IMG/VR virus record: IMGVR_UViG_3300009678_000002
Location: 27,406-91,405 of that record
Origin: a virus
Lineage: Duplodnaviria > Caudoviricetes
DNA: 64,000 nt
Reading direction: 5' to 3' (one strand)
Shown here: one piece after another, positions 1,071 to 28,549 of the stretch
How the letters are laid out: every line of letters starts with the position of its first letter
Position numbering within the stretch: position 1 is the first letter of the stretch
The notes under the pieces: generated by a model
What the model was told of the DNA's origin: nothing
Seen by the model: only the letters and a program-made list of their open reading frames with translations
Databases searched by the model: none
Position numbers and translations under genes: made by a program

Positions 1071-1507
1071 CGCGGAAGCCCGAACGTTTCGGCCGCGGGC
1101 ACCTGCAGCCGACCATCGATGTCGACGCCGAACGCGCCGGCCGGCAGCGCCTCGCGCACGCCGAACGGCTCGGTCACCGCGAGCAGGGCCTCGTATGCCT
1201 CGCGGAAGCTGGCGAACGCGGCCTCGAGCTGCTCGCGACTGAGTTCGTCAGCACCGCGGCCAGCGCGCTGCAGCGTGATCGCAGCGAGCCGAGCGCGGTG
1301 CACGGCCTGGTCGATCTTCGCGCGCGTAGCCTCGTCGATCGGCGAGCGGCTCACGAAGTCGGAGATCACGTCGACCCACGTCACCGCTTCTGCGGCGATG
1401 GACGTGATCGTCGCGATGATCGGCAGCGCGCCAGCGCACGCAGGGCCGAGCGTGAGCACGACCGCGAGCAGTGATTGAGCGATGATGGTTCGCATGTGGT
1501 TCCTCAT
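1067..1507 (-). CDS. Helical lipoprotein/membrane protein
   Basis: Hydrophobic N-terminus ending LGPA-C, then amphipathic helices. ATGA-coupled to both neighbours. Confidence 0.7.
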   Translation of the reverse strand: MRNHMRTIIAQSLLAVVLTLGPACAGALPIIATITSIAAEAVTWVDVISDFVSRSPIDEATRAKIDQAVHRARLAAITLQRAGRGADELSREQLEAAFASFREAYEALLAVTEPFGVREALPAGAFGVDIDGRLQVPAAETFGLPR

Positions 1508-6124: not shown

Positions 6125-6158
6125 GGATGGGATTCCTTGTGCTGGATGCGATCGCGGA

Positions 6159-7978: not shown

Positions 7979-8638
7979 TCACCTGAACTCGCGCACGTAG
8001 AGCTGCAGGATCGCGGCCTCTTGCGCCGGATCGACCGACTCGACGTCGACCGTGACCTCGACGCGCATCTGATAGACGTAACAGGTCGGCCGCTTCGAGC
8101 CCTCGACCTGCGCGCTGTTGAACGCGTACAGCGCTTCAGAGACCGCGCGCGCTTGCGCCGCGTCGAAGATCAGCGGGTCGCCCTCGGTGTCGTAGATCCA
8201 GTTACTCGTGGCGGTTAGCGTTTCGACCTGATCGAGCAGCGTCGGCGCGCTGCTGCGGCCGATCGATGTCGCGTAGGGAAAGCCGCGGAAGTTGTCCGGC
8301 ATGATGCGCAAGCGCGCGGTGCCGGTCACGAGACCGGTGAACCCGAGCACGAGCTTGACGTCGAGGCCGGTCGGCTCGCTCGGCGAGTACCACGTGTGGA
8401 AGAACGGGAACGAGCGCGCGCCTACGATGAACTCGTCGGTCGCAAGCCGGATGCGCGTCGAGCCGACGCCGTTCGCAGCGCAGAACAGATTGAGCCGGTG
8501 CTGCGGGGCTTGGTCGAGTAGGTGCTGAACGTTGTTCTTGAGCAGGAACGCGCGCCCCGCGCTGACCGGCTGATCATCGGCGAAGCTGTCATCTGCAAAG
8601 CGCTCATAGTGACCGAGGTAGCTGCTTTGACCGCTCAT
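7979..8638 (-). CDS. Putative tail tip protein
   Basis: 219 aa, ATGA-coupled to the 912-aa tail gene. Confidence 0.6.
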   Translation of the reverse strand: MSGQSSYLGHYERFADDSFADDQPVSAGRAFLLKNNVQHLLDQAPQHRLNLFCAANGVGSTRIRLATDEFIVGARSFPFFHTWYSPSEPTGLDVKLVLGFTGLVTGTARLRIMPDNFRGFPYATSIGRSSAPTLLDQVETLTATSNWIYDTEGDPLIFDAAQARAVSEALYAFNSAQVEGSKRPTCYVYQMRVEVTVDVESVDPAQEAAILQLYVREFR

Positions 8639-11373
8639 GAGAACCGCCGTCCGCGCCCGCCCGGTATGTTGCCGTCACCGTTAGCCACGTACGCGTACCG
8701 GCGCTGCGCGGTCGTCCCCGTCGATCCGGCGTCCGCCTGGAACTCCATGAACGTCGCCGCCGCCGGCGTCCACGTGTCATCGAGCTGCACTGTCGCCGTG
8801 CCGGCCTCTGCGTCGAGGGCAGTGATCACGCCCGTGACCTCGGGCGACGTCGCGTCGTCCCGATCCACGAGCCGGATGAAGTCGCCGACCTCGAAGTGGT
8901 CGAGCACCTGTCCGTCGAGGTTCCCGCTGAGCAGGATGTTCAGCGCATCGGCCGTGTCGAACTCGAGCTGCCACTCGTCGCCGCCCAGGTCGGTCTGGTC
9001 AGTGACGCTCCCGCTCGCGGCGTAGCCAGCGATCGGCGTGGCTGGAGACCAGAGCTCGAGCGTGCCGGGCCCGACGTCGCCGGGCGCCGAGGGGTCGAGT
9101 TCCCACGTGCGGCCAACGCAGATGCATGCGCGCGACACGATGCCGCGGGTACCGTCGCCTCCGGGGATGAGCGAGTGCGTGAGCTTGACGACGTCGCCGC
9201 AGAGCACCGCGAAGTGCTCGAGTGTCACGCGGACTGTGATGACCACGTAGTCGCGGCCGAGGAGGGCGAGGTACCTGCGCGCGATGTCCTCGGTGGTGTT
9301 GACGCCTTTGCCCGGCGGGTTCCATGCGTGCGAGGCCGGCCGGCTGAACGGCTTGATCTCCATCTGCGACTGACCGCGCCCCTTGTGGGTCGCGATGACG
9401 TCAGCGTCTTGGAAGGTCTCGGGCTCGTCGCTCCACTCGTCTTCGACCGGGTCGTACCGGTGCTGGATCGTGACTGTTGTCAGCACGCCATCGCGCTGCG
9501 GCTCGAAGCGCGGCAGCATCTGCGAGCGCGGCGTCGTGATCGACGTCGTGTCGATCTCGTGCGTCGACAGCACGACCGTCGCCTCGGTCGGCAGCGGCAG
9601 CGGGATGATCCCGATCCGGCCGTCGCTCTCGATGCGCATCATGTGCGCGGAGAACTTGAGCTCCTCGCGCAGGACGTCCTCGACGGCTTTCTCCCGCGTG
9701 AAAATGTAGCGACGAAACGCGAGCTCTTGAACCGCTCCGCCGATCTCCCAATCGGACAGCTCGGCGTCTGTGATCCAAGGCGTGTCGCCGTCGTTGGCGT
9801 TCACGCTCTCGTTCTTGATCTCCTGCACCAGGTCGGCGACCGTGCCCTCGCCGTACGAGCGTTGGATCAGAAGCTCGGGTGCGGGGTCGCTCGACAGCAG
9901 TCCCTGAAAAACCAAGTCATCCGGGGCGAGCTCGATAAAGTCGTACGTGGTGCCGTCGACGACCTCCTGGTCGACGAGCGTAACGAAGAAGCTGGCGGCC
10001 AGGCTGAGGCCCCAGCGGAACTGAAAGTTGGAGATGCGGACCGCGCGCGCGCCCTCTAGCGACTGGTCCATCCACACGCGCCACGGCGGCCAGTCGATGA
10101 TCGCCTGCGGGTCCGGGTTCACGCAGGAGATGCCGCGGATGTTGTCGGTCATCACGCCGAGGTTGATCCCGGCCGCCGCGTCTCCGAGCGCGTAGGCCGG
10201 CCCGCCGTGCTGCCACTGGTCATCGCTGGCAGTGGGGCCGAGGGGGAGCGTCCACGTGCCCGACGTCAGTCCCTCGCTGAGCGAGCCTGGCCGTGCGTTG
10301 CCGGAGCTGACGTCCAGCCAGTCACCTCTGCCTGCGACGTCGACCGCGTACCCGAGCAGCGGCGAGCCGAACTCGATCGTGAAGAACGGCTCGAGCGGGT
10401 TGTTAGCGAACAGCTCGAGGTAAAGGCCGTTGTCGTCCGGCACCAGCGTGATGTGATCGATCTCGGCGAGGAGCGGCTCGATGACTGTGGCGGCGGCGAG
10501 CTCGTCTGCGATGAACGTGTTCAGGTTCGCGAGGAGCGTGACCTCGTCGATGTCGAAGTTGGAGTAATAGAACGGGCCGAAGGTCTGATCGTTGTAGCGG
10601 AACTTGAAGTGCACCGCGCACAGCGCGTGGTGATAGATGCCGATGATCGACGACTCCTGAATGCCGCCGGCGAGCGACTGCCGCAGAGGTTGCGTGACCG
10701 GATGCGTCTCGACGAGCCAGCTAACGCCATCGCGCGTGTCGAGCTTCGGCGGCCGCGCCACCTGGCCGACCCAGATCTGCTCGCCGTCTCCGGTGTCCTC
10801 GTGCCCATACCAGTACAGGTACGCGCGCCGGTTCTCGAGCGTCGACGGGTGATCGTAGACGCGCACCGCGCGTGTGCGGTCGACGTGCGTGATGTTGTGC
10901 TTTTGCGGCTGCGTGTCCCAGATGTGCCGCTCGATCGTGCCGATGTCGTCCCAGGCGGTGACGCGGACGGCCTCGGTGCCGATGTGGAGGATCGTCCCGA
11001 CGTCGATCGCGCCGCCGCCGTCGAGCTCGAGCTCGGTCGACTCGGACTCCATGTCGACGATGACTTCGCCGATCTCCTCGGGGATGAGCGAGAACGTTTC
11101 GAGCAGCGGGTCGAGCGAGTCCTCGGAGGTGTGCTCGAACGGCGGGGAGATGCGGAACGTGATGCCGCGCGCGTCGACCCGCGCGTCGCGCATGATCACG
11201 TGGTCGCTGAGCACGAGGCCGTCGAGCTGCAGGCCGGGCAGCAGCGTGCGGCCGTCGAGGTCGCTCGGGTCAGGCACCGACGGGTGGCTTACGAACTGGT
11301 AGGGGCAGCCCTCGATGACCAGCCGAAACCTAAGAGTTCCGAACCCTTGCTCGGTGACTTTGGCGATGCTCAT
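8635..11373 (-). CDS. Putative tail tip hub/central tail protein
   Basis: 912 aa, second minus-strand gene after tape measure. Contains LCGDVVKLTH, like the GD-V-V motif of phage tail tip proteins. Confidence 0.7.
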   Translation of the reverse strand: MSIAKVTEQGFGTLRFRLVIEGCPYQFVSHPSVPDPSDLDGRTLLPGLQLDGLVLSDHVIMRDARVDARGITFRISPPFEHTSEDSLDPLLETFSLIPEEIGEVIVDMESESTELELDGGGAIDVGTILHIGTEAVRVTAWDDIGTIERHIWDTQPQKHNITHVDRTRAVRVYDHPSTLENRRAYLYWYGHEDTGDGEQIWVGQVARPPKLDTRDGVSWLVETHPVTQPLRQSLAGGIQESSIIGIYHHALCAVHFKFRYNDQTFGPFYYSNFDIDEVTLLANLNTFIADELAAATVIEPLLAEIDHITLVPDDNGLYLELFANNPLEPFFTIEFGSPLLGYAVDVAGRGDWLDVSSGNARPGSLSEGLTSGTWTLPLGPTASDDQWQHGGPAYALGDAAAGINLGVMTDNIRGISCVNPDPQAIIDWPPWRVWMDQSLEGARAVRISNFQFRWGLSLAASFFVTLVDQEVVDGTTYDFIELAPDDLVFQGLLSSDPAPELLIQRSYGEGTVADLVQEIKNESVNANDGDTPWITDAELSDWEIGGAVQELAFRRYIFTREKAVEDVLREELKFSAHMMRIESDGRIGIIPLPLPTEATVVLSTHEIDTTSITTPRSQMLPRFEPQRDGVLTTVTIQHRYDPVEDEWSDEPETFQDADVIATHKGRGQSQMEIKPFSRPASHAWNPPGKGVNTTEDIARRYLALLGRDYVVITVRVTLEHFAVLCGDVVKLTHSLIPGGDGTRGIVSRACICVGRTWELDPSAPGDVGPGTLELWSPATPIAGYAASGSVTDQTDLGGDEWQLEFDTADALNILLSGNLDGQVLDHFEVGDFIRLVDRDDATSPEVTGVITALDAEAGTATVQLDDTWTPAAATFMEFQADAGSTGTTAQRRYAYVANGDGNIPGGRGRRFS

Positions 11374-11388
11374 GAGAGGCCGTATTCT
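11360..11388 (+). promoter_or_regulatory. Putative sigma70-type promoter for a leaderless transcript
   Basis: TTGGCG-N17-TATTCT, then 6 nt, then the ATG at 11395. Confidence 0.5.
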
Positions 11389-11394
11389 CTGGGG

Positions 11395-11802
11395 ATGGCA
11401 TCGCTCTCGATGTGGATGGTTCTGGCGTCCGCGCTGCTCGCGGTCGCGTGCTCAAGCGGCGGCAGCGGAACGCGCGCCGGCGATGACGCGGGGCCGGCAG
11501 CGGCCGGCCAGGGCGCGATCGATTCTCAGGACGGGCCAGACGCATGGAGCTGCGACTGCGAGTGCGAGCGCACCGACGAGGACGCGCCGCCCGAGATGTT
11601 CGCCGACCTGGCCTACTGCTCGGACTCATTCAACTGGCTACCGGACAGGTCGGTCTCGACGCAGTCTCGGCTCGAGTTCTTTCCGAGCGACGGCACCGAG
11701 CAGTGGCAGTGCACGTGCGCCTGCACGCGTGGCGCGGTCGACGGCTGCGTGTGCGGGCCGTGGGTCAGCGGCTATCAGGCATGGCGCGCCGAGTGTGACT
11801 AG
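11395..11802 (+). CDS. Cys-rich lipoprotein moron, antisense within the tail operon
   Basis: LASALLAVA-CSS lipobox, CxCxC motifs. Fills the gap between two tail genes exactly, and its stop overlaps the convergent stop (CTAG 11799-11802). Confidence 0.8.
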   Translation: MASLSMWMVLASALLAVACSSGGSGTRAGDDAGPAAAGQGAIDSQDGPDAWSCDCECERTDEDAPPEMFADLAYCSDSFNWLPDRSVSTQSRLEFFPSDGTEQWQCTCACTRGAVDGCVCGPWVSGYQAWRAECD

Positions 11803-12704
11803 ACGTCGTCGGGCACCAGCGCGCCGCGCACGTAGCTCGGATAGTTGATGTTCCAGCGCGAGTTCACGTTGAAGCTCGAACGCTCCGGCGCCCAGGCCGT
11901 GCCCTCGGGTCGCAGCGTGAAGATCTCCGCGTAGGGATTCCCGAACCCGCCATCGCTGACCACGTAGGGCAAGCCCTGCCGCGCGTCGCGCTGCAACTGA
12001 CGGTGCGTGTACGGGTGCGCCTGCACCGCGCTCAGAGGTTCGACCTTTGCGATCGGTTCCCACTGCTGCGTGTAGTCGCGCTCGACCGGCGCGCCCGGCC
12101 GCGCGAGCCCGCCGCCGCTGATGCCGTCGTCGCCGATGCCGTAGCTGCCGACCGGTCCCGACTCGCGATCTGCGCTCGGGTTGCTGACCGCGGGCAGCGT
12201 CGGCTTGACGATGAACCACGGGTGGTACGGCGCGGTGTATGAGATCTCGCCCGAGACCGACGCGAGCGGGAACAGCGATTCCCAGCCGAGGTACCGCGCA
12301 CCGTTGTCGGTCGTGAACACCAGGCCGATGTCGACGCCCGTGCCTGGCAGGTAGCCGACGACGTAGAGGCCGGTGTCGTTGTCGAACGCGACCGCGATCG
12401 AACTCGGGTCGGTCCAGCTGTTGTCGGCGGCCTCGGCCTGAATCAGCGCGGTCAGGATCGCGCCGACCGATGCACGCCCGAGCTTGCGGAGCGTGTCGGT
12501 GTCCGATCCGTCCTGCAGCTGGATCGAGAAAGTCTGCAGCTCGTGATGCATGAGCAGCGACGACGCGACGTCGTCATGGTCGAACGCGAGCAGCGAGCTC
12601 AGCTCGATCTCGATGTTCGAGTGCGTGCCGTCGCTGAGGATGAAGCTCCCCAGGTTGTGCGCCGAGTCTGCGACGTCGTGGATCTGGTGGTAACAGGCCG
12701 ACAT
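11799..12704 (-). CDS. Putative distal tail protein
   Basis: 301 aa, immediately after the tape measure (synteny). Confidence 0.6.
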   Translation of the reverse strand: MSACYHQIHDVADSAHNLGSFILSDGTHSNIEIELSSLLAFDHDDVASSLLMHHELQTFSIQLQDGSDTDTLRKLGRASVGAILTALIQAEAADNSWTDPSSIAVAFDNDTGLYVVGYLPGTGVDIGLVFTTDNGARYLGWESLFPLASVSGEISYTAPYHPWFIVKPTLPAVSNPSADRESGPVGSYGIGDDGISGGGLARPGAPVERDYTQQWEPIAKVEPLSAVQAHPYTHRQLQRDARQGLPYVVSDGGFGNPYAEIFTLRPEGTAWAPERSSFNVNSRWNINYPSYVRGALVPDDV

Positions 12705-12706
12705 GA

Positions 12707-14374
12707 TCAGGCTCGCTGAAGGCGCGGGTAAACACCGTCGCGCTCGCCGCGCTCGATCGTCCGCATGAGCTCGCGCGACTGCTCGGTCGTGCTCGGCACT
12801 GTGCTGTGGAAGTGGTAGTGCCTCTCGCTGCCGACGTTGCGCGGCCTCGTGAAGTCGCTGCCCGAGTCACGCGATGGCGCGATCGGCGTGGCGCCTCGAC
12901 CGCGCGCAGCGCCCGCACCCGCGCCGCCGCCCGAACCGACTGCGCCCATGCCCAGGCCGGTCGCGACCATCACTCCGCCGATGGCCATGTGTGCCGGGCC
13001 CTGCGGGTTCAGCGAGATGGTCTCCGCGATTCCCTTGAGGAGGTACATCGTGCCCTCCGCGAACAGCTGATCGCCGATGGCGCCGATGACGGCCTTGCCC
13101 GAGACCTTTTGCCCCTTGGCAAGCGCCTGCAGTGACTTCAGGCCGGCCGCGCCGAACGTCTCGAACACGCTGACGCCGGCCTTGCGCATGTCGTCCCAGC
13201 GCCGGGTCGTCGACTCGTCGATCTTCTCGTACTCGTCGGCCTGGTGCTTGTAGTTCTCGACCGCTGTCTCGCGTTCCTTTTTGTCGAGCTCGAGCGCTTG
13301 CATGTGCGCGTCGAGCCGCGACCGGATGACCGCCTTGTCGGCCTTCTCCTTCTCGCGCGCCGCAACGGTCTCCGCAGACGGGCCTGCGTTCAGCTGAGCT
13401 TGGAACCCGGCGAGCTCGCTGTCGCGGCGCTGGCTCGCTTCCATTCCCGCTTGGACGTTGTCGAGGTTGCGCTGGTGACGCTGCTCGAACGTCTCGTGTG
13501 CACGCGCGCCGGGATTGTTTTTCTTCTTGTTCTTATCGTTCTTCTCGCGCTCCTTGGCGGCCTCGAGCTCCTCGAAAAGCCCGGCCCTGGTCTGCTGCTC
13601 CTTGGCGAGCTCGTTCATGTTGCCGGTGTGGAGTTCCCCCGCGCCGATCTCCACTCCGAGGCCTTTGACCGCACCGAACTCCTTGCGCTTGCCGATCTCG
13701 GAGAGGCGCGCTGCGCTCGCGTCGAGGTCCTTTTGAATGTTGGCCGACGTGCGGACCTGGACGAACAGCGCCTTGTTCGATTCGAGCACCGCGTTGCTGG
13801 CGTCCTGATGAGCCTTCGCGCGGTCGCGCTCCGCCTTCGCCAACTCCTCGGACCGGACGCGCGCGTCCTCCATTGCGGTAGCGAACACGCCGAGCACCGC
13901 GATCGCGCCGCCGGCTACGATGCCAGCGCCGCCGCTGATCACGCTCGTGATGCCAGCGATCGCGCCGCCGGTACGACCGAGCGCGCCCGTGTACTGCGCG
14001 AGGTCCGGGGCGATGACCCTGATCTGATTGCCGAACGCAGCGAAGGACGGGGCCAGTCGACCCATGCCTTGCGCGAACTGCCGCGTCTGCGCCGCCTGGC
14101 TTTCTGTCGCGCGGGCGAGCTGGTCGATGTTGGCGCGGAGGCTTGTCGTGCTCTTGCTAACGCCCTCGATGCCGAGGCGCTGTTTCACCAGCGCATTGAT
14201 GGCGTCCTTGTTGATCAGGTCGATGTGGCGCTTCGTGCTCGACGCGAAGATCTTGTCGAACTTGTCCTGCGACAGGGTGTTCTTCGCGATCTCCTTGTCG
14301 ATCGATGCGTACGCGCGCGCGACAGCATCGGCCCCGGTTACCTCCAACCGGTATTGAACTGTTTCGTCTGCCAC
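12707..14374 (-). CDS. Tape measure protein
   Basis: Ala/Gly-rich helical and coiled-coil protein with hydrophobic stretches, following the chaperone genes. Confidence 0.85.
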   Translation of the reverse strand: MADETVQYRLEVTGADAVARAYASIDKEIAKNTLSQDKFDKIFASSTKRHIDLINKDAINALVKQRLGIEGVSKSTTSLRANIDQLARATESQAAQTRQFAQGMGRLAPSFAAFGNQIRVIAPDLAQYTGALGRTGGAIAGITSVISGGAGIVAGGAIAVLGVFATAMEDARVRSEELAKAERDRAKAHQDASNAVLESNKALFVQVRTSANIQKDLDASAARLSEIGKRKEFGAVKGLGVEIGAGELHTGNMNELAKEQQTRAGLFEELEAAKEREKNDKNKKKNNPGARAHETFEQRHQRNLDNVQAGMEASQRRDSELAGFQAQLNAGPSAETVAAREKEKADKAVIRSRLDAHMQALELDKKERETAVENYKHQADEYEKIDESTTRRWDDMRKAGVSVFETFGAAGLKSLQALAKGQKVSGKAVIGAIGDQLFAEGTMYLLKGIAETISLNPQGPAHMAIGGVMVATGLGMGAVGSGGGAGAGAARGRGATPIAPSRDSGSDFTRPRNVGSERHYHFHSTVPSTTEQSRELMRTIERGERDGVYPRLQRA

Positions 14375-14377
14375 GGC

Positions 14378-14895
14378 TCACCCCTGCTGCGACTGCTTAT
14401 TCGCTCGCTCGAGCGCGACCTTGTGCGCGTCGATGCGCATGATCATCGTCTGCAGGAACAGCACGCCCTGCATCTCGCGGTGACTGATGTCCGGCCGATA
14501 GATGTCGAGCTGCCCCTTGTCGAACATCTGCCAGGCGTCGAACACGCGCTCGACGAACGTGTCGCGCAGCGACATCCACGGGCAGCCGCGGCAGTCGATG
14601 CCGGTCCAGTCCTCGATCACCTCGAGCGCGGCGTCCGCCTGCTCGCGGCATTCACGAACGACCAGGTCAGCGTCGCCGCTGCAGTTGCAGCCGTAGGACC
14701 GCCGCAGCATGCGGCGCATCTGGCGGTCGGCGGGCAGGTCTTGTCGCGCCATGACCGGGTGCCCGATCAGGCTGTTGCGCTGCGCGTCGGTTGCGAGCTC
14801 AGGTTCGATCCCGCACTGCGGGGCGTTCCGCGTGTTCAGAGTTCTTGACACGAACGCGGCAGCGGATAGCGCACGTCGGTCGTGAGGGCTAAACG
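14378..14895 (-). CDS. Tail assembly chaperone, T-like part (likely expressed by -1 frameshift)
   Basis: In the -1 frame of 14836-15306 and open back past CGT-TTA (14890-14895). CxC and CxxCP motifs. Confidence 0.6.
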
Positions 14896-15306
14896 CGACC
14901 GCGTCAGCGCGATCACTCCGATCTCGCAGATCGTGTTGAACTCGAAACGATCGAGCGCCTCATCCTTGAGGATGCCGTTGTCGTAGCGAGCGAGGTCGTT
15001 CTCGTCTGGTAGAGACATCCCGCCCGCTTGACGAATGTTCGCGACCGACTGCACCGCGCACGCAAACGCGCGGCTCCAGTGCTCGGGCCCAGGCTCGTCG
15101 TCGCCGGTCACGTCCTTCATGACGAACCGGAACATGAGCCCCTGTGAAATCTCCTTCAGCGTGAACACCATCGGCTGCAGGCCGGGGATGAACTTCAGCA
15201 GCTTGAAGTCGCGCGAGGTCTTGTACTTTTCGAAGTCGGCACCCATGGCCTCGCGATCGATCGCGGGGTCGCGGTGCTCGACCACTTGGAACGCTTCCGG
15301 TTGCAT
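14836..15306 (-). CDS. Tail assembly chaperone, G-like
   Basis: Upstream of the tape measure, with an overlapping -1 frame ORF and an AGGAG RBS. Confidence 0.7.
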   Translation of the reverse strand: MQPEAFQVVEHRDPAIDREAMGADFEKYKTSRDFKLLKFIPGLQPMVFTLKEISQGLMFRFVMKDVTGDDEPGPEHWSRAFACAVQSVANIRQAGGMSLPDENDLARYDNGILKDEALDRFEFNTICEIGVIALTRSRLALTTDVRYPLPRSCQEL

Positions 15307-15318
15307 TGCAGGTCTCCT

Positions 15319-15795
15319 TCACTCGGCCGCGATCGGCAGGTCGCGCTCCGCCTTCAGGTCAATGAAGTGCGCGCGCGCTGCTGCGCGGATCATCTTGTCC
15401 AGCTTGGGGATCGGGTGCGGCTTACCGTCTGCACCGATCTCGAACGGGAACGCGTTTCGCTTTGGGCGATGCGGCCCGGCCTTCATGTGGTAGCGGAGCT
15501 TGCGCGGCGCCATCAGCACGAGGCCGTTGCGCGTCGATGCGAAGCAGCGGATCAGACCGTAGCTCTCGCCGGTGTCGAACAGCGGCGGCCCCGTGTTGCC
15601 CGACCTGCGCGGCTGCACGGCAGCAAATTGCTGCCCCGCCGGCGAGCGGCTCACATCGATCGCCCGCCGAGACATCGCCTCGATCTGCTTGGCGATGTGC
15701 GCCATGAGCGGCTGCGGGTTCTGCAGGTTCTTGATCCGCTGCGCGATGCGCTTGCGCTGGTAGGTCAGCGACCTGAACTCGCCCTGCTCAGGCAT
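15319..15795 (-). CDS. Phage virion morphogenesis protein (Mu gpG-like tail completion)
   Basis: PLMAHIA...SPAGQQFAAV...PLFDTG motifs; basic protein. Confidence 0.7.
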   Translation of the reverse strand: MPEQGEFRSLTYQRKRIAQRIKNLQNPQPLMAHIAKQIEAMSRRAIDVSRSPAGQQFAAVQPRRSGNTGPPLFDTGESYGLIRCFASTRNGLVLMAPRKLRYHMKAGPHRPKRNAFPFEIGADGKPHPIPKLDKMIRAAARAHFIDLKAERDLPIAAE

Positions 15796-15804
15796 GGCCG
15801 CACC

Positions 15805-17079
15805 TCAGAACAGCGCGATCGCGAACCTGCTGATCGCCTGGTTGTAGTCGGGCACGGTGCCGACCACGTCCGCCGAGTCCGAGTCGTCGTCGCAGCGCAG
15901 CTTGCAGCGCACGGTCAGACCGGTGATCGCGTTGTCGCGCGGCTTGACGTCCCAGACCTGCAGCGTGGGCCAGCTCAGAAGGATGCCGCCGCCGCCGTTC
16001 GCGGTGGGAGCGCTGCCGATCTGGAACCAGCACCCGAGCGCGTCGCGCGCATCCTTGTGGTCCATCCACGTGTGGTCCTCGTCGGCGATGTCGAACTCGA
16101 CGAACGACTCCGCGGGCACACGCAGCCACTGGTAGAACGTGTTGACGCCGTCCGGGCCCTCGTGCTTGACCATCGCGAAGCCAGGTTCGAAGCGGACCTC
16201 GCTGCACTTGACGATCGCGCCGATCGTGGTCGTGCCGTTCGTCTGCTTCCGGAACTCGCTGTCGCGGATGATCTTCGCGGTGTTGTTTGTGTACGTGGCG
16301 CGCGTGAGCACGCCCGAGTTCAGGTCGGCCGCCATCGCGGAGCCGTCTGCCTTTTCCCAGTTGGCGAAGTCCCACGCGGTGCTGATGCGCGCGATGCCGC
16401 GCGGTCCCATGGGCGCGAACGACAGCTGCGTCGGCATGCCGCCGAACAGGCCGTAACGCTCGTGCGTCGCGAGGCCTTCGATGATGGCCTGCATGGACGT
16501 GGTCTGGTCGCCGCTCGTGCCGTGCCAGAAGTAGTTCGCCGCCGCGTACGCGACGCCGGCGGGCACGCCGCTGAGCGAGTGCTTGAGGTGGACCGCGAGC
16601 GCGACGATGTCGTCGACCTGCCGCGCCTCGAGCCGGCCGCCCGAGCCCGTCGTGAACGCCAGCGCGCCGCCGCGCCGGATGCCGGTGGACGCGTCGACAG
16701 TGGGCGCGACCGCGCTGCCGCCGGTGATGGTCTGGCCGGTGCCGAGCTGCTCGCCGCCCATGATCACCTTGAGGATGCGACCGAGCGCGCCCTGCGCCGC
16801 GGCGGTGTCATTGCCGGCGCGCGCGAGGATGGTCTCGAGGTTCATGTCCCAGCTGGCGGTCGCCATCGGGGGCGCGAACTCGCCGACGTTCGCGTCGTCG
16901 ATGTGCTGCAGCGCGTGGCCGGGGTCGACCAGGTCCTCGTGCAACTCGTACTTCATCGAGCCGGTGATGAACGGGCACTCGAGGAAGTCGCCCAGCGTGC
17001 CGCTGTGGTCGGTGCCGAATGAACCGTTCGGCTCCTCGTAGAGGCGGAGTCGGCGGGGCTGCTGTGCCTGAATCGTCAT
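15805..17079 (-). CDS. Major tail tube protein
   Basis: 424 aa; N-terminal YEE..SFGT and LGRILKVIMG pattern typical of long siphovirus tube proteins; synteny. Confidence 0.7.
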   Translation of the reverse strand: MTIQAQQPRRLRLYEEPNGSFGTDHSGTLGDFLECPFITGSMKYELHEDLVDPGHALQHIDDANVGEFAPPMATASWDMNLETILARAGNDTAAAQGALGRILKVIMGGEQLGTGQTITGGSAVAPTVDASTGIRRGGALAFTTGSGGRLEARQVDDIVALAVHLKHSLSGVPAGVAYAAANYFWHGTSGDQTTSMQAIIEGLATHERYGLFGGMPTQLSFAPMGPRGIARISTAWDFANWEKADGSAMAADLNSGVLTRATYTNNTAKIIRDSEFRKQTNGTTTIGAIVKCSEVRFEPGFAMVKHEGPDGVNTFYQWLRVPAESFVEFDIADEDHTWMDHKDARDALGCWFQIGSAPTANGGGGILLSWPTLQVWDVKPRDNAITGLTVRCKLRCDDDSDSADVVGTVPDYNQAISRFAIALF

Positions 17080-17100
17080 CGCTCACCTGCTCGGATGGGT

Positions 17101-17160
17101 TTTGAAAACGCGGAACGCCCCGCGAAGCCGACGGGGACTCGTCAGCCAGCGGGGGCGAAG
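17101..17160 (-). terminator. Hairpin followed by a U-rich stretch (attenuator or terminator)
   Basis: Minus strand CGCCCCCGC..GGCTGACG-AGTCCC-CGTCGGCT..GCGGGGCG, then TTCCGCGTTTTC. Confidence 0.45.
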
Positions 17161-17195
17161 TGGCCTGCCGTGGCCGTGTGGATTGGCGCGCGCTG

Positions 17196-17759
17196 CTACT
17201 CGGGCGCGGCCTGCGGAACTTCGAGAATCGCGGAGCCGATCACCGACCAGCGAACGAGGTTCGCCTCGCGGTCCTCGATGGGCTCGGTCTGCACGGGCAC
17301 GCTCGCGCCGGCGTCCGGATCAGGGCCGAGCAGCAGACCGCTCGCCGCGATGGTCGACTCGCCCTCGAGCGTCGTGCCGATCTGCCCAGGCCACTTGAGC
17401 AAGTACTCGACGGCGACGCCATCGGAGGACACGTAGTCCATGGCCTCGGCGTGCGCGAAGTCGGCGAGCGTGCTGCGCTTGTGCGTGAGGAACTCGATCG
17501 TGACCGGCAGGACGCGGTGCTCGGTCGAAGCCATGTTGCTGACCGGCGACGAGCTGTGCGTGTACATGCGGCCGAAGCGAACGTCGAACCAGTGCCGCGC
17601 TTCGCAGTTCTTCGCGTAGGTCTGCTGCTTGTGCGGCGCCACGGTCGCGAGACCGGGCACGTATCCGAACACGCCCGGCAGCGCGCGCGGCGATCCGAGC
17701 TTGCCCTCGAGGACGTCACGGATCGCGTGCCGGATGTTCCTGATGTAGCTGACGTCCAT
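17196..17759 (-). CDS. Putative tail terminator/neck protein
   Basis: 187 aa between adaptor and tube; N-terminal IRHAIRDVL helix. Confidence 0.55.
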   Translation of the reverse strand: MDVSYIRNIRHAIRDVLEGKLGSPRALPGVFGYVPGLATVAPHKQQTYAKNCEARHWFDVRFGRMYTHSSSPVSNMASTEHRVLPVTIEFLTHKRSTLADFAHAEAMDYVSSDGVAVEYLLKWPGQIGTTLEGESTIAASGLLLGPDPDAGASVPVQTEPIEDREANLVRWSVIGSAILEVPQAAPE

Positions 17760-17762
17760 GGC

Positions 17763-18509
17763 TCACCCGAAGTCGGCCCAGTCGTCCGACATCCGGCCGC
17801 GGAACTCGTCGGGCTCGTCGGGGTTGCCGCTGACCACGCGCGCGCCGAGCTCCTGCGCCGGCGCTGTGTCGGACTGCTTGACCGCTCCGGTCTGCAGTTC
17901 CTTCAGCCACGCGAGCGCCTCGGCTCGAGCATCGGAGACCGACACCTCGACGCCGCCGCCCTGCAGCACGTGCTTCTTGAGGACGTACGCCGCGGCGAAA
18001 CACGCGGTGGCCTCGGTCATCGCAGGCGACCACTCGGTGAGCGGCAGCGGGTGCGCGCCGCCGACGCGGTGCGCGACGTGGCTGCTGGCCTTGATGAGGC
18101 CGCGGACGATGACGCCCTCCTTGGCCTGCTCGAGGACGTCGTCGGGCAGCGCGTCGTCGAGGTCATCGCGCTCGGCGAAGAGGGTGTGCGCGAAGCCTGC
18201 GACCGAGAACGTGCAGTCATCGGTCACGACCCAGCCTGCGCGCACGTACGCGTCGCAGCCGTCGAACGAGCCGCGGAGCTTGGCCGCGGCGGAGACGGGC
18301 GGGAAGGTTCCGATGCGGCGCCATCCGTTCGTGCCGTCCGGCGACGTCTCGATGTAGACCTCGAGCGGCTCGCCCTCCACCTCGGTGACGGTCAGGTGCA
18401 GGTCGACCGCGTGCCGGACCGTGTCGGTCTCGATCTCGACGGCGTCGCCTTCCCCGTCGGCGGCGCGCTCGTCGAGCTCGAGCAGTTCAATGGCGAGCTT
18501 GTGCGCCAT
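17763..18509 (-). CDS. Head-tail adaptor (Mu gp36/DUF1320-like) fused to an N-terminal jelly-roll domain
   Basis: C-terminal half ASSHVAHRVGGAHPLPL...ACFAAAYVL...ALAWLKELQTG. N-terminal IETSPDGTNGW...YVR. Confidence 0.75.
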   Translation of the reverse strand: MAHKLAIELLELDERAADGEGDAVEIETDTVRHAVDLHLTVTEVEGEPLEVYIETSPDGTNGWRRIGTFPPVSAAAKLRGSFDGCDAYVRAGWVVTDDCTFSVAGFAHTLFAERDDLDDALPDDVLEQAKEGVIVRGLIKASSHVAHRVGGAHPLPLTEWSPAMTEATACFAAAYVLKKHVLQGGGVEVSVSDARAEALAWLKELQTGAVKQSDTAPAQELGARVVSGNPDEPDEFRGRMSDDWADFG

Positions 18510-18513
18510 GGGT

Positions 18514-18987
18514 TCAGTCGTCGATCTTGAGCTGGCCGCGTGCGGCGCGGCGCTCGGCCTCGGCGCGCGGCATGACCACGACGTCGCCAGCGAAGTAGGG
18601 CATGCCGCCCCAGAGGTAGGTGCCGAGCGCGGTCGTCGACACGTTCCGGTTCGGCGGCGTCAGGGCGGGCTCGAGCAGGCCGGCCTCGCCGGCATCGATC
18701 GCGCGCACGAGCTCGTCGGCCTGGGCCGGTGTGCTGGGCACGGTCGTGTGGAAGTGGATGTGCGTGACCACGGGCTCGGGCGCGCCGGGCTCGGGGTCCT
18801 CGGGCTCGGGGTTTGGCGGCGGCGCGGGCTCGGTGACGGCCTCTGCCTGGTCGAGCTCGAACTCGGCCGCCTCGGGCTCCGTGGTGGCGCCAGCGGGCGG
18901 CGCCGATTCGGGCGAGGTGGTGGGCGCTGGCTGCGCCTGCGGGGGCGTGGCAGGCGCTGGTGAGCGACGGTTACGATTCTTCGCCAT
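18514..18987 (-). CDS. Capsid-adjacent Pro/Glu-rich protein (gpFI position)
   Basis: C-terminal GMPYFAGDVVVMPRAEAERRAARG domain typical of post-MCP genes. Internal motif shared with the tape measure C-terminus. Confidence 0.7.
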   Translation of the reverse strand: MAKNRNRRSPAPATPPQAQPAPTTSPESAPPAGATTEPEAAEFELDQAEAVTEPAPPPNPEPEDPEPGAPEPVVTHIHFHTTVPSTPAQADELVRAIDAGEAGLLEPALTPPNRNVSTTALGTYLWGGMPYFAGDVVVMPRAEAERRAARGQLKIDD

Positions 18988-19044
18988 GGTGCTCCGCTTG
19001 CCTCGGGTCGGGGTTGTGGGTACTCGGTTGAGGTAGGCACGTGC

Positions 19045-19102
19045 GGGGCCGCTGCCGTGCGACGGGAATCCCTCGCGGGATCATCCGTGCGGCAGCGGCC
19101 CC
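19045..19102 (-). promoter_or_regulatory. Long RNA hairpin downstream of the capsid gene
   Basis: Perfect 13-bp stem GGGGCCGCTGCCG/CGGCAGCGGCCCC enclosing ATCCC-GCGA-GGGAT (GNRA loop on the minus strand). No U-tract. Confidence 0.7.
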
Positions 19103-19126
19103 TGCCCGATCAGGCCGCTAGGCCGA

Positions 19127-20284
19127 TCAGGTGGTGATGCTGGTGATCAGGAAGCCGGCGTCTGCCGCCACGATCTTGTGGTCCTCGGAGACCGCGACCT
19201 TGGCGTAGATTCCGCCGCGCTTGCCGGTCTTCGGGTCCGCCCACTGCGTGGTCAGCGGGTCGCCGTTGCTGCGGAAGGTCGTTCCGAAGTGGAGCGACCG
19301 GCGGCTCGGACGCACCGCGACCGAGAGGATGCCGAACACGTCGCCGGTGACCATGCGAGCGTATGTCGCCGTCTGACCGTCGTTGGCCGTATCCTCGCGT
19401 GCGCGGGTGACGAGCAGCTCGTCGAGACCGAACCACCCCGCGACCATCTGCGGCGTGATGAGGCCGGTCTGCACGTACTTCATGCGCTCGGCCAGCGCCG
19501 CGTTGTTGATGATGCCGCTGTTCCACACGCCGAGCGAGCAGAACGCCACCTTGCGGGTCGGCGTCTGCCCGACCCACAGCGCATCCTTCGCCGCGGTGAT
19601 GTCCGCGATGATGGTGCCGCCGGTCGAGTCGCTCCAGTTGGTCGACGCGGTGGTCGTGTTGCTGCCGTAGCTGCCCGAGGCAGCGACGATCGCGAGGATG
19701 CGCTTCTCGCGCCGGAACGCGATGCCCTCGTTGATGGCCTCGACCAGGTCGACCATTTCATCGAAAGGCGCGTCCTGGTTCTGGATCGTCTCGAGGTCGA
19801 GGAAGTTCAGGTAGCCGTAATCCTTGACCGAGTAGTTGTCGGTCGTGCGGCTCGCGTCGACTTCGTTCGGCACACTGCGCGATCCGATCTCGTCATCCGG
19901 GAACGCGAGGCGTTCACGCTTCGGATAGATCGCGTAGTAGTCCGACCGCTTCGACACCGGCACGGCCGGCATCAGCCGCTCGCCGATGTACTCGTCATTG
20001 GCGTACTGCACCGACATCTCTGCGAGCAGAGTGTCGACGTGCACGCTGACGGGGTTCACCGAGCGCACGATGAGCTCGCGGCGGTACGCCTCGCCATGCA
20101 CCTCGCAGCCGAGGCCGCGGATGAAGTCGAGGTTCTTCGCCTTGAGGATCTTCTTGCTGTCCTCGGTCATGCCCGCGAGCTGGTCGCGGACCTTGTTCAT
20201 CATCGCCTCGTATGCGAGGCCTTTCTGGGTGCGCGAAATGGGCGCTTCTCGGCCCGCGCCCCCAAGCATGTTGTGCTGGAGCAT
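19127..20284 (-). CDS. Major capsid protein (lambda gpE-like, HK97 fold)
   Basis: VDTLLAEMSVQYAN.EYIGERLMPAVPV; REKRILAIV; KIVAADAGFLIT C-terminus. Start chosen at MLQHN. Confidence 0.9.
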   Translation of the reverse strand: MLQHNMLGGAGREAPISRTQKGLAYEAMMNKVRDQLAGMTEDSKKILKAKNLDFIRGLGCEVHGEAYRRELIVRSVNPVSVHVDTLLAEMSVQYANDEYIGERLMPAVPVSKRSDYYAIYPKRERLAFPDDEIGSRSVPNEVDASRTTDNYSVKDYGYLNFLDLETIQNQDAPFDEMVDLVEAINEGIAFRREKRILAIVAASGSYGSNTTTASTNWSDSTGGTIIADITAAKDALWVGQTPTRKVAFCSLGVWNSGIINNAALAERMKYVQTGLITPQMVAGWFGLDELLVTRAREDTANDGQTATYARMVTGDVFGILSVAVRPSRRSLHFGTTFRSNGDPLTTQWADPKTGKRGGIYAKVAVSEDHKIVAADAGFLITSITT

Positions 20285-20390
20285 CTTGATTACCTTTGTT
20301 GGAATGGAGGGTTGAGAGACGAGAGCGCGCGCGCGGCGAGCGACATGCCCGCCGCGGTCATCGATCACTCGACGATCAGCCGGTCAGCGA

Positions 20391-20819
20391 TTACTCGCCG
20401 ACCGCGTGGCGTACGAGTGCGAGGCCGACGTAGTCGCCGTCGGCGCCGTTCTGCGTGAAGTAGCCGGGGCTGTTCACGTCCGTGTCCGCGCCCGTGTAGT
20501 CCGGCACCGCATCGGTCAGCCTGCCGGCCGACACGTACTTGGCCGACTGACCGCGCGTCGCGCCGCCTGCGCCGACACGGACCTTCGCGACGCCGCCGAC
20601 GAGCAGCGCCACGGAGACCTTGTCGCCCGCCGCGCCGGCGAGCTTGCCCAGCATCACGACGACGCCGATCGGCAGCGCGACCGCGCTGTCGATGCGGAGG
20701 CATTCGTGGTCCGCGTTGCCGTCCATCACGACGTCACCGAGGAACACGGTGGCCGCTGCCTCCACCGTGCGTTCCACGATGGTGCAGCCGGAGAGGATCT
20801 GATCTGCGCGAGTAGCCAT
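20391..20819 (-). CDS. Capsid decoration/cement protein (DUF2190-like)
   Basis: PIGV...AGDKVSV...G.AKVRVG...G, ADGDYV; lies between protease and MCP. Confidence 0.8.
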   Translation of the reverse strand: MATRADQILSGCTIVERTVEAAATVFLGDVVMDGNADHECLRIDSAVALPIGVVVMLGKLAGAAGDKVSVALLVGGVAKVRVGAGGATRGQSAKYVSAGRLTDAVPDYTGADTDVNSPGYFTQNGADGDYVGLALVRHAVGE

Positions 20820-20946: not shown

Positions 20947-22158
20947 TCAGGCCGCGGCGGCCGCCTTGCGGGCGATGTCGAGCAGGTCGTCCTTGACCAC
21001 GGGCTTGTCGGACGGCGCCGGCGTCGGCTGCGTCGCGCTCGTGAGCGGATCGCCGTCGACCTTCACCTCGGTCGCGAGCGGAATGTCGGCCGTCGCGTCG
21101 AGCTTCTCGAGTGCGAACTCGAGGCCCTTCGCGCTCGCCAGCACTTCCCAGACCTCGCGCTGCGCCTTCGCGAACTTCTTGCCCTCGCGGGCGTCGAGCT
21201 CGCTCTTGGTCACGCGTGCGTCCGCTGCGGTCGCGCGCTCGGCTGCGGCCTTGGCAGCGGTCTCGTGCTGCGCGCTGAGAGCCTTCTCCGCGTTCAGCTC
21301 GGCTTCGAGCTCGGCCACGCGCTTGCTGCCTTCCGCGTGCGAGGTCTCGGCCGTCGTCGCGCGCGTCTCGAGCTGCGTGACGCGAGCGTTCAGGGTTGCG
21401 TTGTCCGACAGCGCCTTGTCATACGCCGCCTTCTCTTCTGGGGTCATGGCCATGGTGGTCTCCGTGTCGCCAGTTACGGCGGCGTTGCGAGCCGCAACGA
21501 TGCGGCTCAGGTGCTCTCGACTCCGCTCGATCGACTTCGCGACCGCTTGCGGATTGCTTCCCATCGGAACGACGCTGATCTCGTGCAGCTCGTTCGGGAA
21601 CTCTTCTGAACCGACCTCGTAGAACTTCGTGTTGCCGGCCTTGTCCTTGACGGCCGTGATCGAGCCGGCGCGAAAGCCGACGCTGACCGCGCGCAGCACG
21701 CGCTGCGTGATGCGGCGCCAGAGCTTGTCGACGAGCGGCTCCTCTTCGGCCGTGCCCTTCACGAGCTGGATCGTCGCGTGCAGCTTCTTACTCTTGACCT
21801 CGACCTTGATGGCCTTGCCGATCGGCATCAGGTCTTCGGGGTCGACCGAGCCTTCGTAGGCCCATCGCGACACGCCGAAGAGGTTGTGCGCCCAGAGGAT
21901 GACCGGGTTGAGCTCGTACCGGGTCAGGTCCCAGTGCTGGCGCACGATGTCGCCATGGCTGTCCATCACCTCGGTCGAGGCGATCACCTCGAAGGTGCGC
22001 TCCTCTTCGTTGATGACCTTGACCTCGACGTCCATGCCCATGCGCACGAAGTCGCCGCGCTCGGTGTCGTCGTCGACGCGCTCGACGTCGGTGTCGTTGT
22101 CGTCGAGCTTGAGCCGCGCCTGCTTGCCCGGTTCAGTGGTGTTCGAGTTCAGCCGCAT
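20947..22158 (-). CDS. HK97-family prohead protease with C-terminal coiled-coil scaffold
   Basis: ASTEVMDSHGDIV, NPVILWAHN, PIGK, AVSVGF, LHEISVVPMGSNPQA. GAGGAG RBS before 22158. Confidence 0.9.
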   Translation of the reverse strand: MRLNSNTTEPGKQARLKLDDNDTDVERVDDDTERGDFVRMGMDVEVKVINEEERTFEVIASTEVMDSHGDIVRQHWDLTRYELNPVILWAHNLFGVSRWAYEGSVDPEDLMPIGKAIKVEVKSKKLHATIQLVKGTAEEEPLVDKLWRRITQRVLRAVSVGFRAGSITAVKDKAGNTKFYEVGSEEFPNELHEISVVPMGSNPQAVAKSIERSREHLSRIVAARNAAVTGDTETTMAMTPEEKAAYDKALSDNATLNARVTQLETRATTAETSHAEGSKRVAELEAELNAEKALSAQHETAAKAAAERATAADARVTKSELDAREGKKFAKAQREVWEVLASAKGLEFALEKLDATADIPLATEVKVDGDPLTSATQPTPAPSDKPVVKDDLLDIARKAAAAA

Positions 22159-22339
22159 GATCGTCTCCTCGGGGTTCGGGCTGCTGCGCGCGGTCCGCAT
22201 ACGGGACGCACCCGCACATGCCAGCGCGGCGGCTGTGCTGCTTACGCAGCCAGCGAGCACGCGCGGCTTGGTCTTCCGACTCGGGCGCGCCGCGCTCGGC
22301 GGCGGCCCGGGTCGGCTTGTCTCGCGTCGTCATCGCGCC

Positions 22340-23009: not shown

Positions 23010-24446
23010 CTACTCGGCAGCGGCCTCGCCGCCGGCCGCCGCGGCCTCGAGCAGCGACAGGTCCTCTTCGATCTCGACTCCGAACCCGTCGGCGATCTCC
23101 TGCAGGTTCTTGACGCGGTAGCCGCCGGTCAGGAACGCGCGCGACATGAACGCCAGCGTTCGCGCGTCCTCGGCGACCATCGAGTTCTCGTTCACGAGTT
23201 CCTCGTCTTCGCCCGGCTGCGGCATGCCGACCTGGTCACGCACCCACGGCGCCGGGATCTTCAGGCCCGCAATGCGCAGCGTGTTGATGGCGGTCGCGAA
23301 CTCGCTGATGTCCGTGCCCTCGTCGGTCTGGAACACTGCCGCCGGGCACCGGATGTCGGCGCCCACGTTCAGCGCGACCGCGGGCATGAACATGCAATAG
23401 CGAAGGCCGGCTGCGATCGCGCGGCAGTCCTCTTCGCCGATGTCGGTGCGGACCTGGTCGCGCACCACTGCGCCGCGCTGGTCGCCGTGCTCGGTGCTCT
23501 CGGTGGTCGTGGTCTGGCCGAGGATGGCCTTGCTCATCTCGCGGCCGAGCGTGTCGAACAGCTCGCGGTGCGTGCTCGGGCTCGGCGCGCTGCCCTTCGG
23601 GTAGTGCACATCGATCTGCGTGTCGGTGTCGCAGACGCCGATGCCCTCGGTGCCGACCCGCTCGAGCATGGTGACGAGCTTGTCGATGTCGTCGATGTGC
23701 GTGCCGGGCTTGTACTTGCCGATCCGCCACGGCTTCCACGCAATCTCGGCGAGCGCGATCCAGTCACGCAGACCCCAGTTGCGGAGCAGCGCCGACCAGA
23801 CGAGCAGGCGCGCGAGGCCTTCGCGCGCAGGGACGTCGCCAACGATGCGGCGCTGGATCTGGATGATGCGGCCGGGGAACTCTGCGAGCAGGTCCACGCC
23901 GACGGTGTCGCCGGTTGTCTTGCGGTAGCGCAGCGAGCCGTCCGCGAGCGCGAAGATGAAGTCGCGCGCGTGCACGGGCTTGGCGCGGTACGGCAGCAGC
24001 AGGCCTTCGCTCGTGCGCTTCCACAGCAGCTCGGACGTTGCGTGCCCGAACAGAAAGCCGTTCATGTGCGAGATGAGCTCGGGCCAGTTCTCGAAGTCGT
24101 CCCGGATGCGGCGGCAGAGGTCGGCTGCCTCCTGCTCCTTTGGGCTCGCGTCCTTCGGAACCACGAACTCGAGATCGACCAGAGCGGGCGCGCGCTCGCG
24201 TGTGCTGAGCACGCCCTGAAGGTGGCCGTCTTTCTGACGGCTCTCGTTCATCAGGTCGACGAGCCGGTCAGGCTGGCCGCCATCGGCAGCGCGGATGATC
24301 TCGCTTACGCCCAGAGGGGAGAGGCCGCCGCCGATGCGCTGGAACTGCTCCCATAGCGGCTTGGCGTGGATGATCGGAGTGCTGGTCGGTTCGACCTGCG
24401 CAGGCCCGAATGCCTGCTTGATCCACGCGAGGAGGTTGAACGCCAT
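23010..24446 (-). CDS. Portal protein (Mu gp29/DUF935 family)
   Basis: KDGHLQGVLSTR, FGHATSELLW, PWRIGKY, REMSKAILGQTTTT. Confidence 0.92.
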   Translation of the reverse strand: MAFNLLAWIKQAFGPAQVEPTSTPIIHAKPLWEQFQRIGGGLSPLGVSEIIRAADGGQPDRLVDLMNESRQKDGHLQGVLSTRERAPALVDLEFVVPKDASPKEQEAADLCRRIRDDFENWPELISHMNGFLFGHATSELLWKRTSEGLLLPYRAKPVHARDFIFALADGSLRYRKTTGDTVGVDLLAEFPGRIIQIQRRIVGDVPAREGLARLLVWSALLRNWGLRDWIALAEIAWKPWRIGKYKPGTHIDDIDKLVTMLERVGTEGIGVCDTDTQIDVHYPKGSAPSPSTHRELFDTLGREMSKAILGQTTTTESTEHGDQRGAVVRDQVRTDIGEEDCRAIAAGLRYCMFMPAVALNVGADIRCPAAVFQTDEGTDISEFATAINTLRIAGLKIPAPWVRDQVGMPQPGEDEELVNENSMVAEDARTLAFMSRAFLTGGYRVKNLQEIADGFGVEIEEDLSLLEAAAAGGEAAAE

Positions 24447-27643: not shown

Positions 27644-27697
27644 CGCTTGCAACAGTCTGCATGCTCGTGCATGGTGTTCGCCATGGACACGACGCAA
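27644..27697 (+). promoter_or_regulatory. Promoter/start cassette, copy 1 (leaderless)
   Basis: TTGCAA-N17-CATGGT-N7-ATG; 42/54 nt identical to 30168-30221. Confidence 0.7.
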
Positions 27698-28549
27698 GCG
27701 AATCTATTCGGCATCGAGATCGAGACGGTCGGCATCGACCGCGACGCAATCGCGCGGGCCATCCAGACCGTCGTAGGCGGGACGCTCGATGCGTACGCCC
27801 CCACGGTGCGCATGGCAGACGGGCGCGAATGGAAGGTGGTCAGCGATGGCTCGCTGGGCTACGGGCCGCATGGCGAGATCGTCTCCCCCAAGCTGCGCTA
27901 CGACGAGCTCGACACGCTGCAGAGCATCGTTCGCGCGGTGCGGCGCGCGGGAGCGCGGGTCGACGATAAATGCGGGATCCATGTCCACGTCGATGGCTCG
28001 CGCTTCGATGTCCGCGGGCTGCTCAACCTCGTAAACATCGTCCACAAGAACGAGCGGCTCATCGAGCGCGCGCTCGGGGTCGCGCCGGATCGGCTGGCGC
28101 GATACACGCGCGCGCTGCGCGCCGAGTTCATCACGCGGCTTGAGCAGCGCCGCCCGCGCACGATGTCGGAGTTCCAGCAGGCTTGGTATGGCAACGCGGG
28201 CGCGCCGAGCCGCTACGACCACACGCGCTACCACGGGCTCAACCTCAACTCATTCTTCTTTCGCGGCACGGTCGAGTTCCGCTACTTCAACGGCTCGCTG
28301 CACGCGGGCGAGATCAAGACCTACGTACAATTCTGCCTCGCGCTGGTGCATCGCGCGCAGACCACGAAGGCCGCGAGCAAGGCTCGCCGCGTAACCCAGA
28401 ACGACAAATGGGCGGTCCGGGTCTGGCTGCTCAAGCTCGGGATGATCGGCGACGAGTTCAAGACCGCGCGCTTCCACATGATGAAGCGCCTCGATGGCGA
28501 CAGCCGCTACGCTGCCGCGCAGACCGCGAGCGATGCGGTGGCGTCATGA
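27683..28549 (+). CDS. Putative amidoligase (Amidoligase_2 / COOH-NH2 ligase type 2)
   Basis: FGIEIET, WKVVSDGSL, EIVSPKL, CGIHVHV, RYHGLN, TVEFRYFNGSL. Confidence 0.92.
   Translation: MDTTQANLFGIEIETVGIDRDAIARAIQTVVGGTLDAYAPTVRMADGREWKVVSDGSLGYGPHGEIVSPKLRYDELDTLQSIVRAVRRAGARVDDKCGIHVHVDGSRFDVRGLLNLVNIVHKNERLIERALGVAPDRLARYTRALRAEFITRLEQRRPRTMSEFQQAWYGNAGAPSRYDHTRYHGLNLNSFFFRGTVEFRYFNGSLHAGEIKTYVQFCLALVHRAQTTKAASKARRVTQNDKWAVRVWLLKLGMIGDEFKTARFHMMKRLDGDSRYAAAQTASDAVAS

Follow-up and report, generated by a model that had tools for sequence, protein, structure and literature searches.

The stretch of DNA analysed here (the window, 64,000 nucleotides) comprises bases 27406-91405 of a complete 91,405-bp virus record (IMGVR_UViG_3300009678_000002; 68% G+C). 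Head and tail genes here lie on the minus strand, and the head module is classed as Mu/B3-like. It encodes a portal (23010-24446, minus strand; Portal_Mu, 198 bits), a protease/scaffold-like protein (20947-22260, minus strand), a cement protein of 142 aa (20391-20819, minus strand; Phage_cement PF22758 (E217 gp24/Pam3 gp6), 30.2 bits against a threshold of 27) and the major capsid protein (19127-20368, minus strand; phrog_1005, E 3.7e-48). The last is 24-26% identical to its counterparts in Pseudomonas phage B3 and in Stenotrophomonas and Xanthomonas phages (tblastn). Directly downstream of the capsid gene lies that for a post-capsid protein of 157 aa (p157, P0003; 18514-18987, minus strand), which has a GGAG ribosome-binding site of its own, some 6 nt before the ATG, and is followed by a gp36-like adaptor (17763-18509, minus strand). 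Judged from these matches, the recognizable capsid cement protein is the product of 20391-20819 and not p157, which had no decoration or cement match in Pfam, PHROGs, Foldseek or VIA.

The 140-nt gap between the capsid gene and that for p157 contains a stable GC-rich hairpin (19035-19126, minus strand; MFE -58.6 kcal/mol, z -3.9 against shuffled sequences), which is not followed by a U-tract. Its role could be that of an attenuator or RNA-stability element, lowering expression of p157 and downstream genes relative to the capsid protein. Adjoining the terminase region, in divergent orientation, is a gene encoding an Amidoligase_2 protein (27671-28549, plus strand; E 1e-54), followed by a small ORF and a GGACT/AIG2-like gene (precomputed Pfam marks). 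Together the amidoligase and GGACT/AIG2-like genes look like a phage-borne peptide-ligase cassette.

The tail gene products are, in order, 187, 424, 158, 156, 157, 555, 301, 912, 219 and 351 aa in length (the 157-aa tail product is distinct from p157). The 555-aa protein (P0004; 12707-14374, minus strand) matches phrog_7025, 'tail length tape measure protein' (E 3.7e-7, residues 62-301), and has no Pfam match; both the PHROG match and the position of its gene support the earlier designation of this protein as the tape measure protein (TMP). The two genes immediately ahead of it (156 and 157 aa) are small, overlapping, tail-assembly-chaperone-like ORFs; a slippery site that would allow a chaperone frameshift was not detected. 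Directly after it are genes for a 301-aa protein (11799-12704, minus strand) and a 912-aa putative tail hub or tip protein (8635-11373, minus strand; weak match to phrog_1101, 'tail protein', E 0.0033), both of which, from gene order, are candidate tail-tip partners of the TMP end. The gene order of the closest relative found, the Logan contig L013, agrees up to the 299-aa counterpart of the 301-aa protein (a 41% identical orthologue), where the contig ends. That of contig L010 is similar and includes a 923-aa counterpart of the 912-aa protein.

Most of these tail proteins are without known relatives. No Pfam, PHROG or PDB-sequence match was found for the products of 187, 424, 156, 157, 301, 219, 351, 148 and 159 aa, and phmmer searches of PDB sequences with the 424-, 301- and 912-aa proteins were also negative. 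The AF2 model of the 424-aa protein had a mean pLDDT of 29.5. As this tail module (8635-17759, minus strand) is common only to a few metagenomic contigs (L010, L013 and the one bearing P0016), it may represent an undescribed tail type. Among the distal tail genes, ORFs 5645-6124 and 6159-6743 (both minus strand) encode paralogues that are 36.5% identical over 126 aa (E 5e-19). ORF 6159-6743 overlaps the 148-aa ORF at 6121-6567, which is counted among the tail genes, and either frame could be the real gene. Downstream of the paralogues are genes for a 1375-aa protein with PKD and beta-helix domains (1504-5631) and a papain-like protein of 260 aa (288-1070).

The gene encoding p157 is syntenic with small post-capsid genes in eight relatives (L013, L018, L022, L001-L003, L005 and L008), and the proteins they encode share an architecture. 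Each has a short, basic N-terminal tip, then a Pro/Ala/acidic linker that is hypervariable, and last a C-terminal domain of some 45 residues. Lengths run from 76 to 185 aa, and family members are alignable in the C-terminal domain only, the linker varying in both length and sequence; the linker is thus likely to tolerate insertions. In p157 the disordered linker (residues 10-75; 18763-18960, minus strand) is 30% Pro, 20% Ala and 20% Asp plus Glu, and the folded C-terminal domain, the sole part common to family members, occupies residues 113-157 (18517-18651, minus strand).

A word-based homologue search with p157 returned only p157 itself, and tblastn against cultured phages gave no match. An exhaustive search without profiles yielded a single true homologue, P0011 (100 aa, E 4.5e-4); this post-capsid protein of L013 shows 55% identity to p157 over the last 40 residues. 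A second candidate, P0010 (5875 aa, E 9.4e-9), was rejected as an artefact, its score being the sum of eleven repeats at about 3 bits each. Locus searches anchored on the capsid protein added the post-capsid proteins of L018, L022, L001, L002, L003, L005 and L008; capsid identity to the window is 72% for L013 and 60-62% for L018 and L022. The post-capsid proteins of L001 (7682-8239) and L002 (11068-11574) carry, at the same position in the linker, a conserved motif of their own (VPT[LF][ED]E[WY]xxAGY, then YHxRFGxNPKPN). It had no second copy in the 59-kb record of L002. Short motifs thus seem to be accommodated time and again in the linker of this protein family.

In the AF2 model of p157, run with a nine-sequence alignment, residues 113-157 were predicted with confidence (pLDDT 93-96) as four or five short strands and one helix, and pLDDT was about 50-65 elsewhere. 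A Foldseek search of the model against the PDB gave no match at E ≤ 0.001, and a profile search against PDB sequences was empty. Structural alignment of the C-terminal domain with VIA, for which matches stand out at a Z of about 8, gave values that were all lower: 7.7 for the GINS B-domain, 6.3 for the N-terminal domain of ribosomal L9, 6.1 for the C-terminal domain of lambda gpFI (2LSM; rmsd 4.0 Å, 52 residues) and 5.0 for residues 1-45 of Bacillus subtilis YqbF (PDB 2HJQ). DUF7210 (PF23843) matched five of nine family members in per-protein scans and six in an alignment-wide scan, with scores for the p157 homologues of 12.9-21.1 bits (best E 2.3e-4), all below the gathering threshold of 27 bits, and p157 itself had no DUF7210 match. 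For p157, the resemblance to DUF7210 comes from Atlas structure rows that match DUF7210 clusters (TM 0.82 by query, 0.67 by row), a lead only, as is the nearest Atlas feature cluster to p157, Packaging_FI (0.83). No mention of DUF7210 was found in the literature. Membership of p157 in the lambda gpFI family was rejected: none of the nine family members matched PF14000 at E ≤ 1, and hhalign of the family profile was negative (probability 0.06).

Between its linker and its C-terminal domain, p157 carries a peptide that closely resembles the end of the TMP. Residues 76-101 (18685-18762, minus strand) are identical to TMP residues 519-544 (12743-12820, minus strand) at 16 of 26 positions (pairwise BLASTP E 7e-9), confirming the coordinates and identity first reported for this pair, once both are read on the minus strand. 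Both intervals are coding on that strand and their plus-strand translations are unrelated. This core consists of a ladder of histidines (HxHFH) and then an amphipathic helix. The similarity extends without gaps to p157 residues 76-109 (18661-18762, minus strand) and TMP residues 519-552 (12719-12820, minus strand), with 18 of 34 residues identical by BLAST. At the nucleotide level, 57 of 78 positions are identical in the core and 67 of 102 across the 34 codons. As the TMP ends three residues beyond the match, what is shared is essentially the whole of its C-terminal module rather than an internal peptide.

An all-against-all BLAST of the 198 high-GC3 ORFs of the complete record placed the p157/TMP pair among five intragenomic matches (E 1.1e-6). 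With this and the pairwise value, chance is excluded and the similarity is taken to be real. A six-frame motif scan found no third copy of the module in the genome. Elsewhere in the record, a Cys-rich segment of 43 residues (60% identity, E 1e-14) is shared by a 143-aa ORF (43713-44144, minus strand) and a 402-aa ORF (61003-62211, plus strand). It has CPC motifs and CxxCDGSG, so is zinc-ribbon or DnaJ-like, and neither ORF has a Pfam match.

In the TMP the module follows a Gly-rich flexible segment, and several lines of evidence indicate that this is its native position, in keeping with the original view that the shared peptide is the C-terminal peptide of the TMP. Homologues of the TMP are P0012 (47% identity), P0016 and P0007 (of L010). 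The TMP of L013, 47% identical overall to that of the window, retains the C-terminal module, while P0016 and the L010 protein end in degenerate forms of it, an alternating strand followed by a helix; the L010 segment has one His only. A signature, HFH[ST]xVPxTxxQ, was defined, which is present in the window TMP (555 aa; 12719-12820, minus strand), the p157 copy, the L013 TMP (580 aa; L013:10657-10803) and the TMP of L038 (1287 aa; L038:1297-1440, minus strand), all from uncultured phages. L038 was the one in-frame case in a DNA-pattern scan of IMG/VR. Here the signature lies 47 residues before the end of the protein, again after a Gly-rich segment, in a TMP that is otherwise unrelated to that of the window.

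The same DNA pattern gave 29 matches in 596 Gb of prokaryote genomes; most were in short ORFs and none ended a TMP-like protein, so they were read as noise. With the TMP, or its 41-aa end, as query, tblastn against cultured phages gave no meaningful match, and TMP-based locus searches of viral, genome and metagenome collections gave no matches. Judged on its occurrence in these proteins, HFH[ST]xVPxTxxQ is a rare but genuine feature of the TMP C-terminus. Its alternating histidines point to a metal site on the axis of a trimer.

None of the eight p157 homologues (P0011 of L013 and the proteins of L018, L022, L001, L002, L003, L005 and L008) contains the TMP module, and a hidden Markov model of the module detected no second copy in any of the loci retrieved. 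No sister lineage carrying the p157 insert was found. In P0011 the linker passes directly into the C-terminal domain, with no segment equivalent to the insert. Since the module is native to TMPs and absent from all eight homologues of p157, the direction of transfer would have been from TMP to p157, which supports the proposal in the preliminary description that the peptide was copied from the one into the other. By parsimony, the lack of an insert in P0011 also indicates that p157 gained the module after its split from L013.

Sequence comparison of the copies points the same way. The p157/TMP pair within the window (pN 0.23) is more alike than are the orthologous TMP modules of the window and L013 (10 of 26 residues identical by script, pN 0.46), indicating that the copy postdates the L013 split. 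The p157 copy is also nearer to its own TMP (16/26) than to that of L013 (9/26, by eye). Dating the copy by dS was rejected since synonymous differences saturate: pS is about 0.33-0.51 even between orthologues, owing to extreme GC3 bias. When the p157 and L013 genes were aligned as DNA, divergence of the linker prevented the exact insertion junctions from being placed.

Very probably, then, the copy arose when the C-terminal module of the TMP was transferred in frame, and in a single lineage, into the p157 linker. A stretch of about 102 nt coding for it would have entered a hypervariable, disordered part of p157, presumably through illegitimate recombination, either inside one phage or between relatives. 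The piece transferred would comprise the His-ladder strand, the short amphipathic helix and a tail, which in the TMP may form the anchor in the tail tip. In p157 it would lie exposed between Pro-rich spacers, on the N-terminal side of the small folded domain.

That p157 instead had the motif ancestrally, and that it was lost from every relative sampled, is highly improbable, as is an origin by convergence or chance. A fast-evolving linker makes losses easy, but at least three or four independent losses would be required while the TMP family keeps the module, and the closeness of the copy to the TMP of its own genome argues against it. The E values given above tell against chance.

Since the transfer, the copy has changed in a patterned way. 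It is in frame and intact inside an otherwise fast-changing linker, and all seven signature residues (H, F, H, V, P, T and Q) are kept despite ten differences in 26 positions. Were differences random, retention of all seven would have P = 0.017, which is a weak test because changes on the TMP side are constrained anyway; it hints at constraint. The hydrophobic positions of the helix are also retained, and pN/pS for the pair is about 0.6. Ten of the 16 replacements in the 34-residue copy are to Ala, Pro, Asp or Gly, that is, to the composition of the linker. Five basic residues have been lost across the helix and the stretch after it, where basic residues are replaced by Ala or Asp, and net charge has gone from 0 to -4. 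A kept core with a changed surface fits either a tolerated insert that drifts neutrally or a self-associating core that has been retained.

What the module does in the TMP can be approached through solved tails. In phage JBD30, the TMP ends in a unit of 33 residues that is fixed in the core of the baseplate and coordinates a putative ion on the axis, and the C-terminal units of the T5 and 80alpha TMPs resemble it (PMC11445458). TMP ends in solved tails form trimeric bundles in the core of the baseplate or tip, and the JBD30 TMP contacts the baseplate through Lys, Arg and Gln residues at its end (PMC11445458). It is by analogy with these structures alone that the window TMP may plug its C-terminus into the tail tip, a point which had been given as known.

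There is perhaps an even chance that the insert is mainly a passenger, tolerated in a linker that accommodates insertions and deletions, with at most an accessory role. It would have drifted towards the composition of the linker while possibly keeping the intrinsic core of the module, perhaps a self-associating or metal-bridged bundle of His-ladders, and would not be a precise mimic of the surface by which the TMP binds its partner. In the preliminary description the copy was instead seen as a mimic that would cap tail tips, tether heads to tails or share a protease or chaperone site. On a reading of this kind it would still bind the partner of the TMP C-terminus, be that the 301- or 912-aa tail-tip protein or a TMP-specific chaperone, which we consider unlikely. 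It is equally doubtful that p157 is recruited to tail-tip complexes, or competes with them, as an assembly checkpoint, decoy or tether. Retention of all signature residues and hydrophobic helix positions would fit such binding, as would exposure of the module between flexible spacers in both p157 and the TMP and the role of TMP ends as docking units (PMC11445458). However, none of the eight p157 homologues conserves the motif, one of the two outcomes named beforehand as counting against the mimic, so the copy lies outside the function of the family. Its position differs too: it is internal in p157, between a Pro-rich linker and a folded domain, whereas TMP copies are C-terminal. Basic residues have given way to Ala and Asp across the helix and the stretch that follows, and as residues such as Lys, Arg and Gln make the contacts in JBD30 (PMC11445458), the combination of kept core and changed surface argues against exact mimicry of a partner-binding surface. 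Nor is there an evident benefit in a head-module protein binding the tail tip. The setting described for the copy, between flexible linkers beside a likely capsid-binding C-terminal domain, stands as regards a Pro-rich disordered linker and a folded domain; capsid binding gained no support, with all fold matches below Z 8 and the hhalign comparison with gpFI negative.

A different role would follow if the module were an autonomous trimerizing unit, its His strands sharing a metal on the threefold axis next to an amphipathic helix, and so caused p157 to oligomerize; this we regard as rather improbable. It is likewise only tentatively suggested, with low expectation, that p157 oligomers would raise the avidity of the small C-terminal domain for its target. 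HxH motifs coordinate iron in trimeric spikes of the P2 gpV type, and the pattern of change in p157, in which the HxHFH ladder and hydrophobic helix positions are conserved and surface charges are free to change, is as expected of a self-associating core. The trimeric bundles and axial ion of the JBD30 TMP end provide a precedent, and the JBD30 protein encoded directly after the capsid gene acts on the capsid as a trimer (PMC11445458). Against oligomerization, the AF2 monomer has only a low-confidence helix in the insert (residues 87-103, pLDDT about 65) and no strand, the relatives of p157 function without the module and the L010 TMP segment has a single His.

Were the copy functional, the terminal docking peptide of the TMP would be a transferable address, with a bearing on how the tail tip recognizes the TMP and on the engineering of phage assembly. 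In its strongest form, a working copy of a portable address has been installed on the head-module adaptor p157, letting the protein dock with tail-tip or hub complexes or assemble together with TMP ends, which would couple or police head and tail assembly; we think this fairly unlikely. Within that reading, it could be a decoy that titrates unassembled hub or TMP, or a metal-bridged His-ladder tag for trimerization. If true, it would be an instance of a wider, undescribed reuse of TMP terminal peptides as assembly tags. As a passenger, the insert is still a clean example of intragenomic peptide shuffling into a disordered linker. The previously unnoted HFH[ST]xVPxTxxQ signature, found at the C-termini of otherwise unrelated TMPs, is a better candidate for experimental study than is the p157 copy.

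Lambda gpFI bridges the capsid and the terminase-DNA complex (PMC13595911). Like p157, it is small, is encoded directly after the major capsid gene (order E-FI-FII) and has an acidic, flexible middle part and, at the C-terminus, a small folded domain; unlike p157, it has no TMP-derived peptide. Thus p157 is a positional analogue of gpFI and not a demonstrated member of its family. On the tail side, the 34-aa piece that was copied is like the C-terminal units of JBD30 gp46, T5 pb2 and the 80alpha TMP in size (about 33-37 residues) and in position, after less ordered sequence, with no similarity in sequence. Those units are pure coiled coil and their location has been seen in solved tails, whereas the window module opens with the HxHFH ladder and HFH[ST]xVPxTxxQ and its location at the tail tip is presumed.

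Accessory segments, for example Ig-like domains, are shuffled among phage head and tail proteins. As in such shuffling, a short autonomous segment of one structural protein recurs here in another protein of the same phage. What differs is that the segment is a terminal peptide of 34 aa and not a folded domain, that it lies inside the disordered linker of a head-module protein and that it is found in one lineage.
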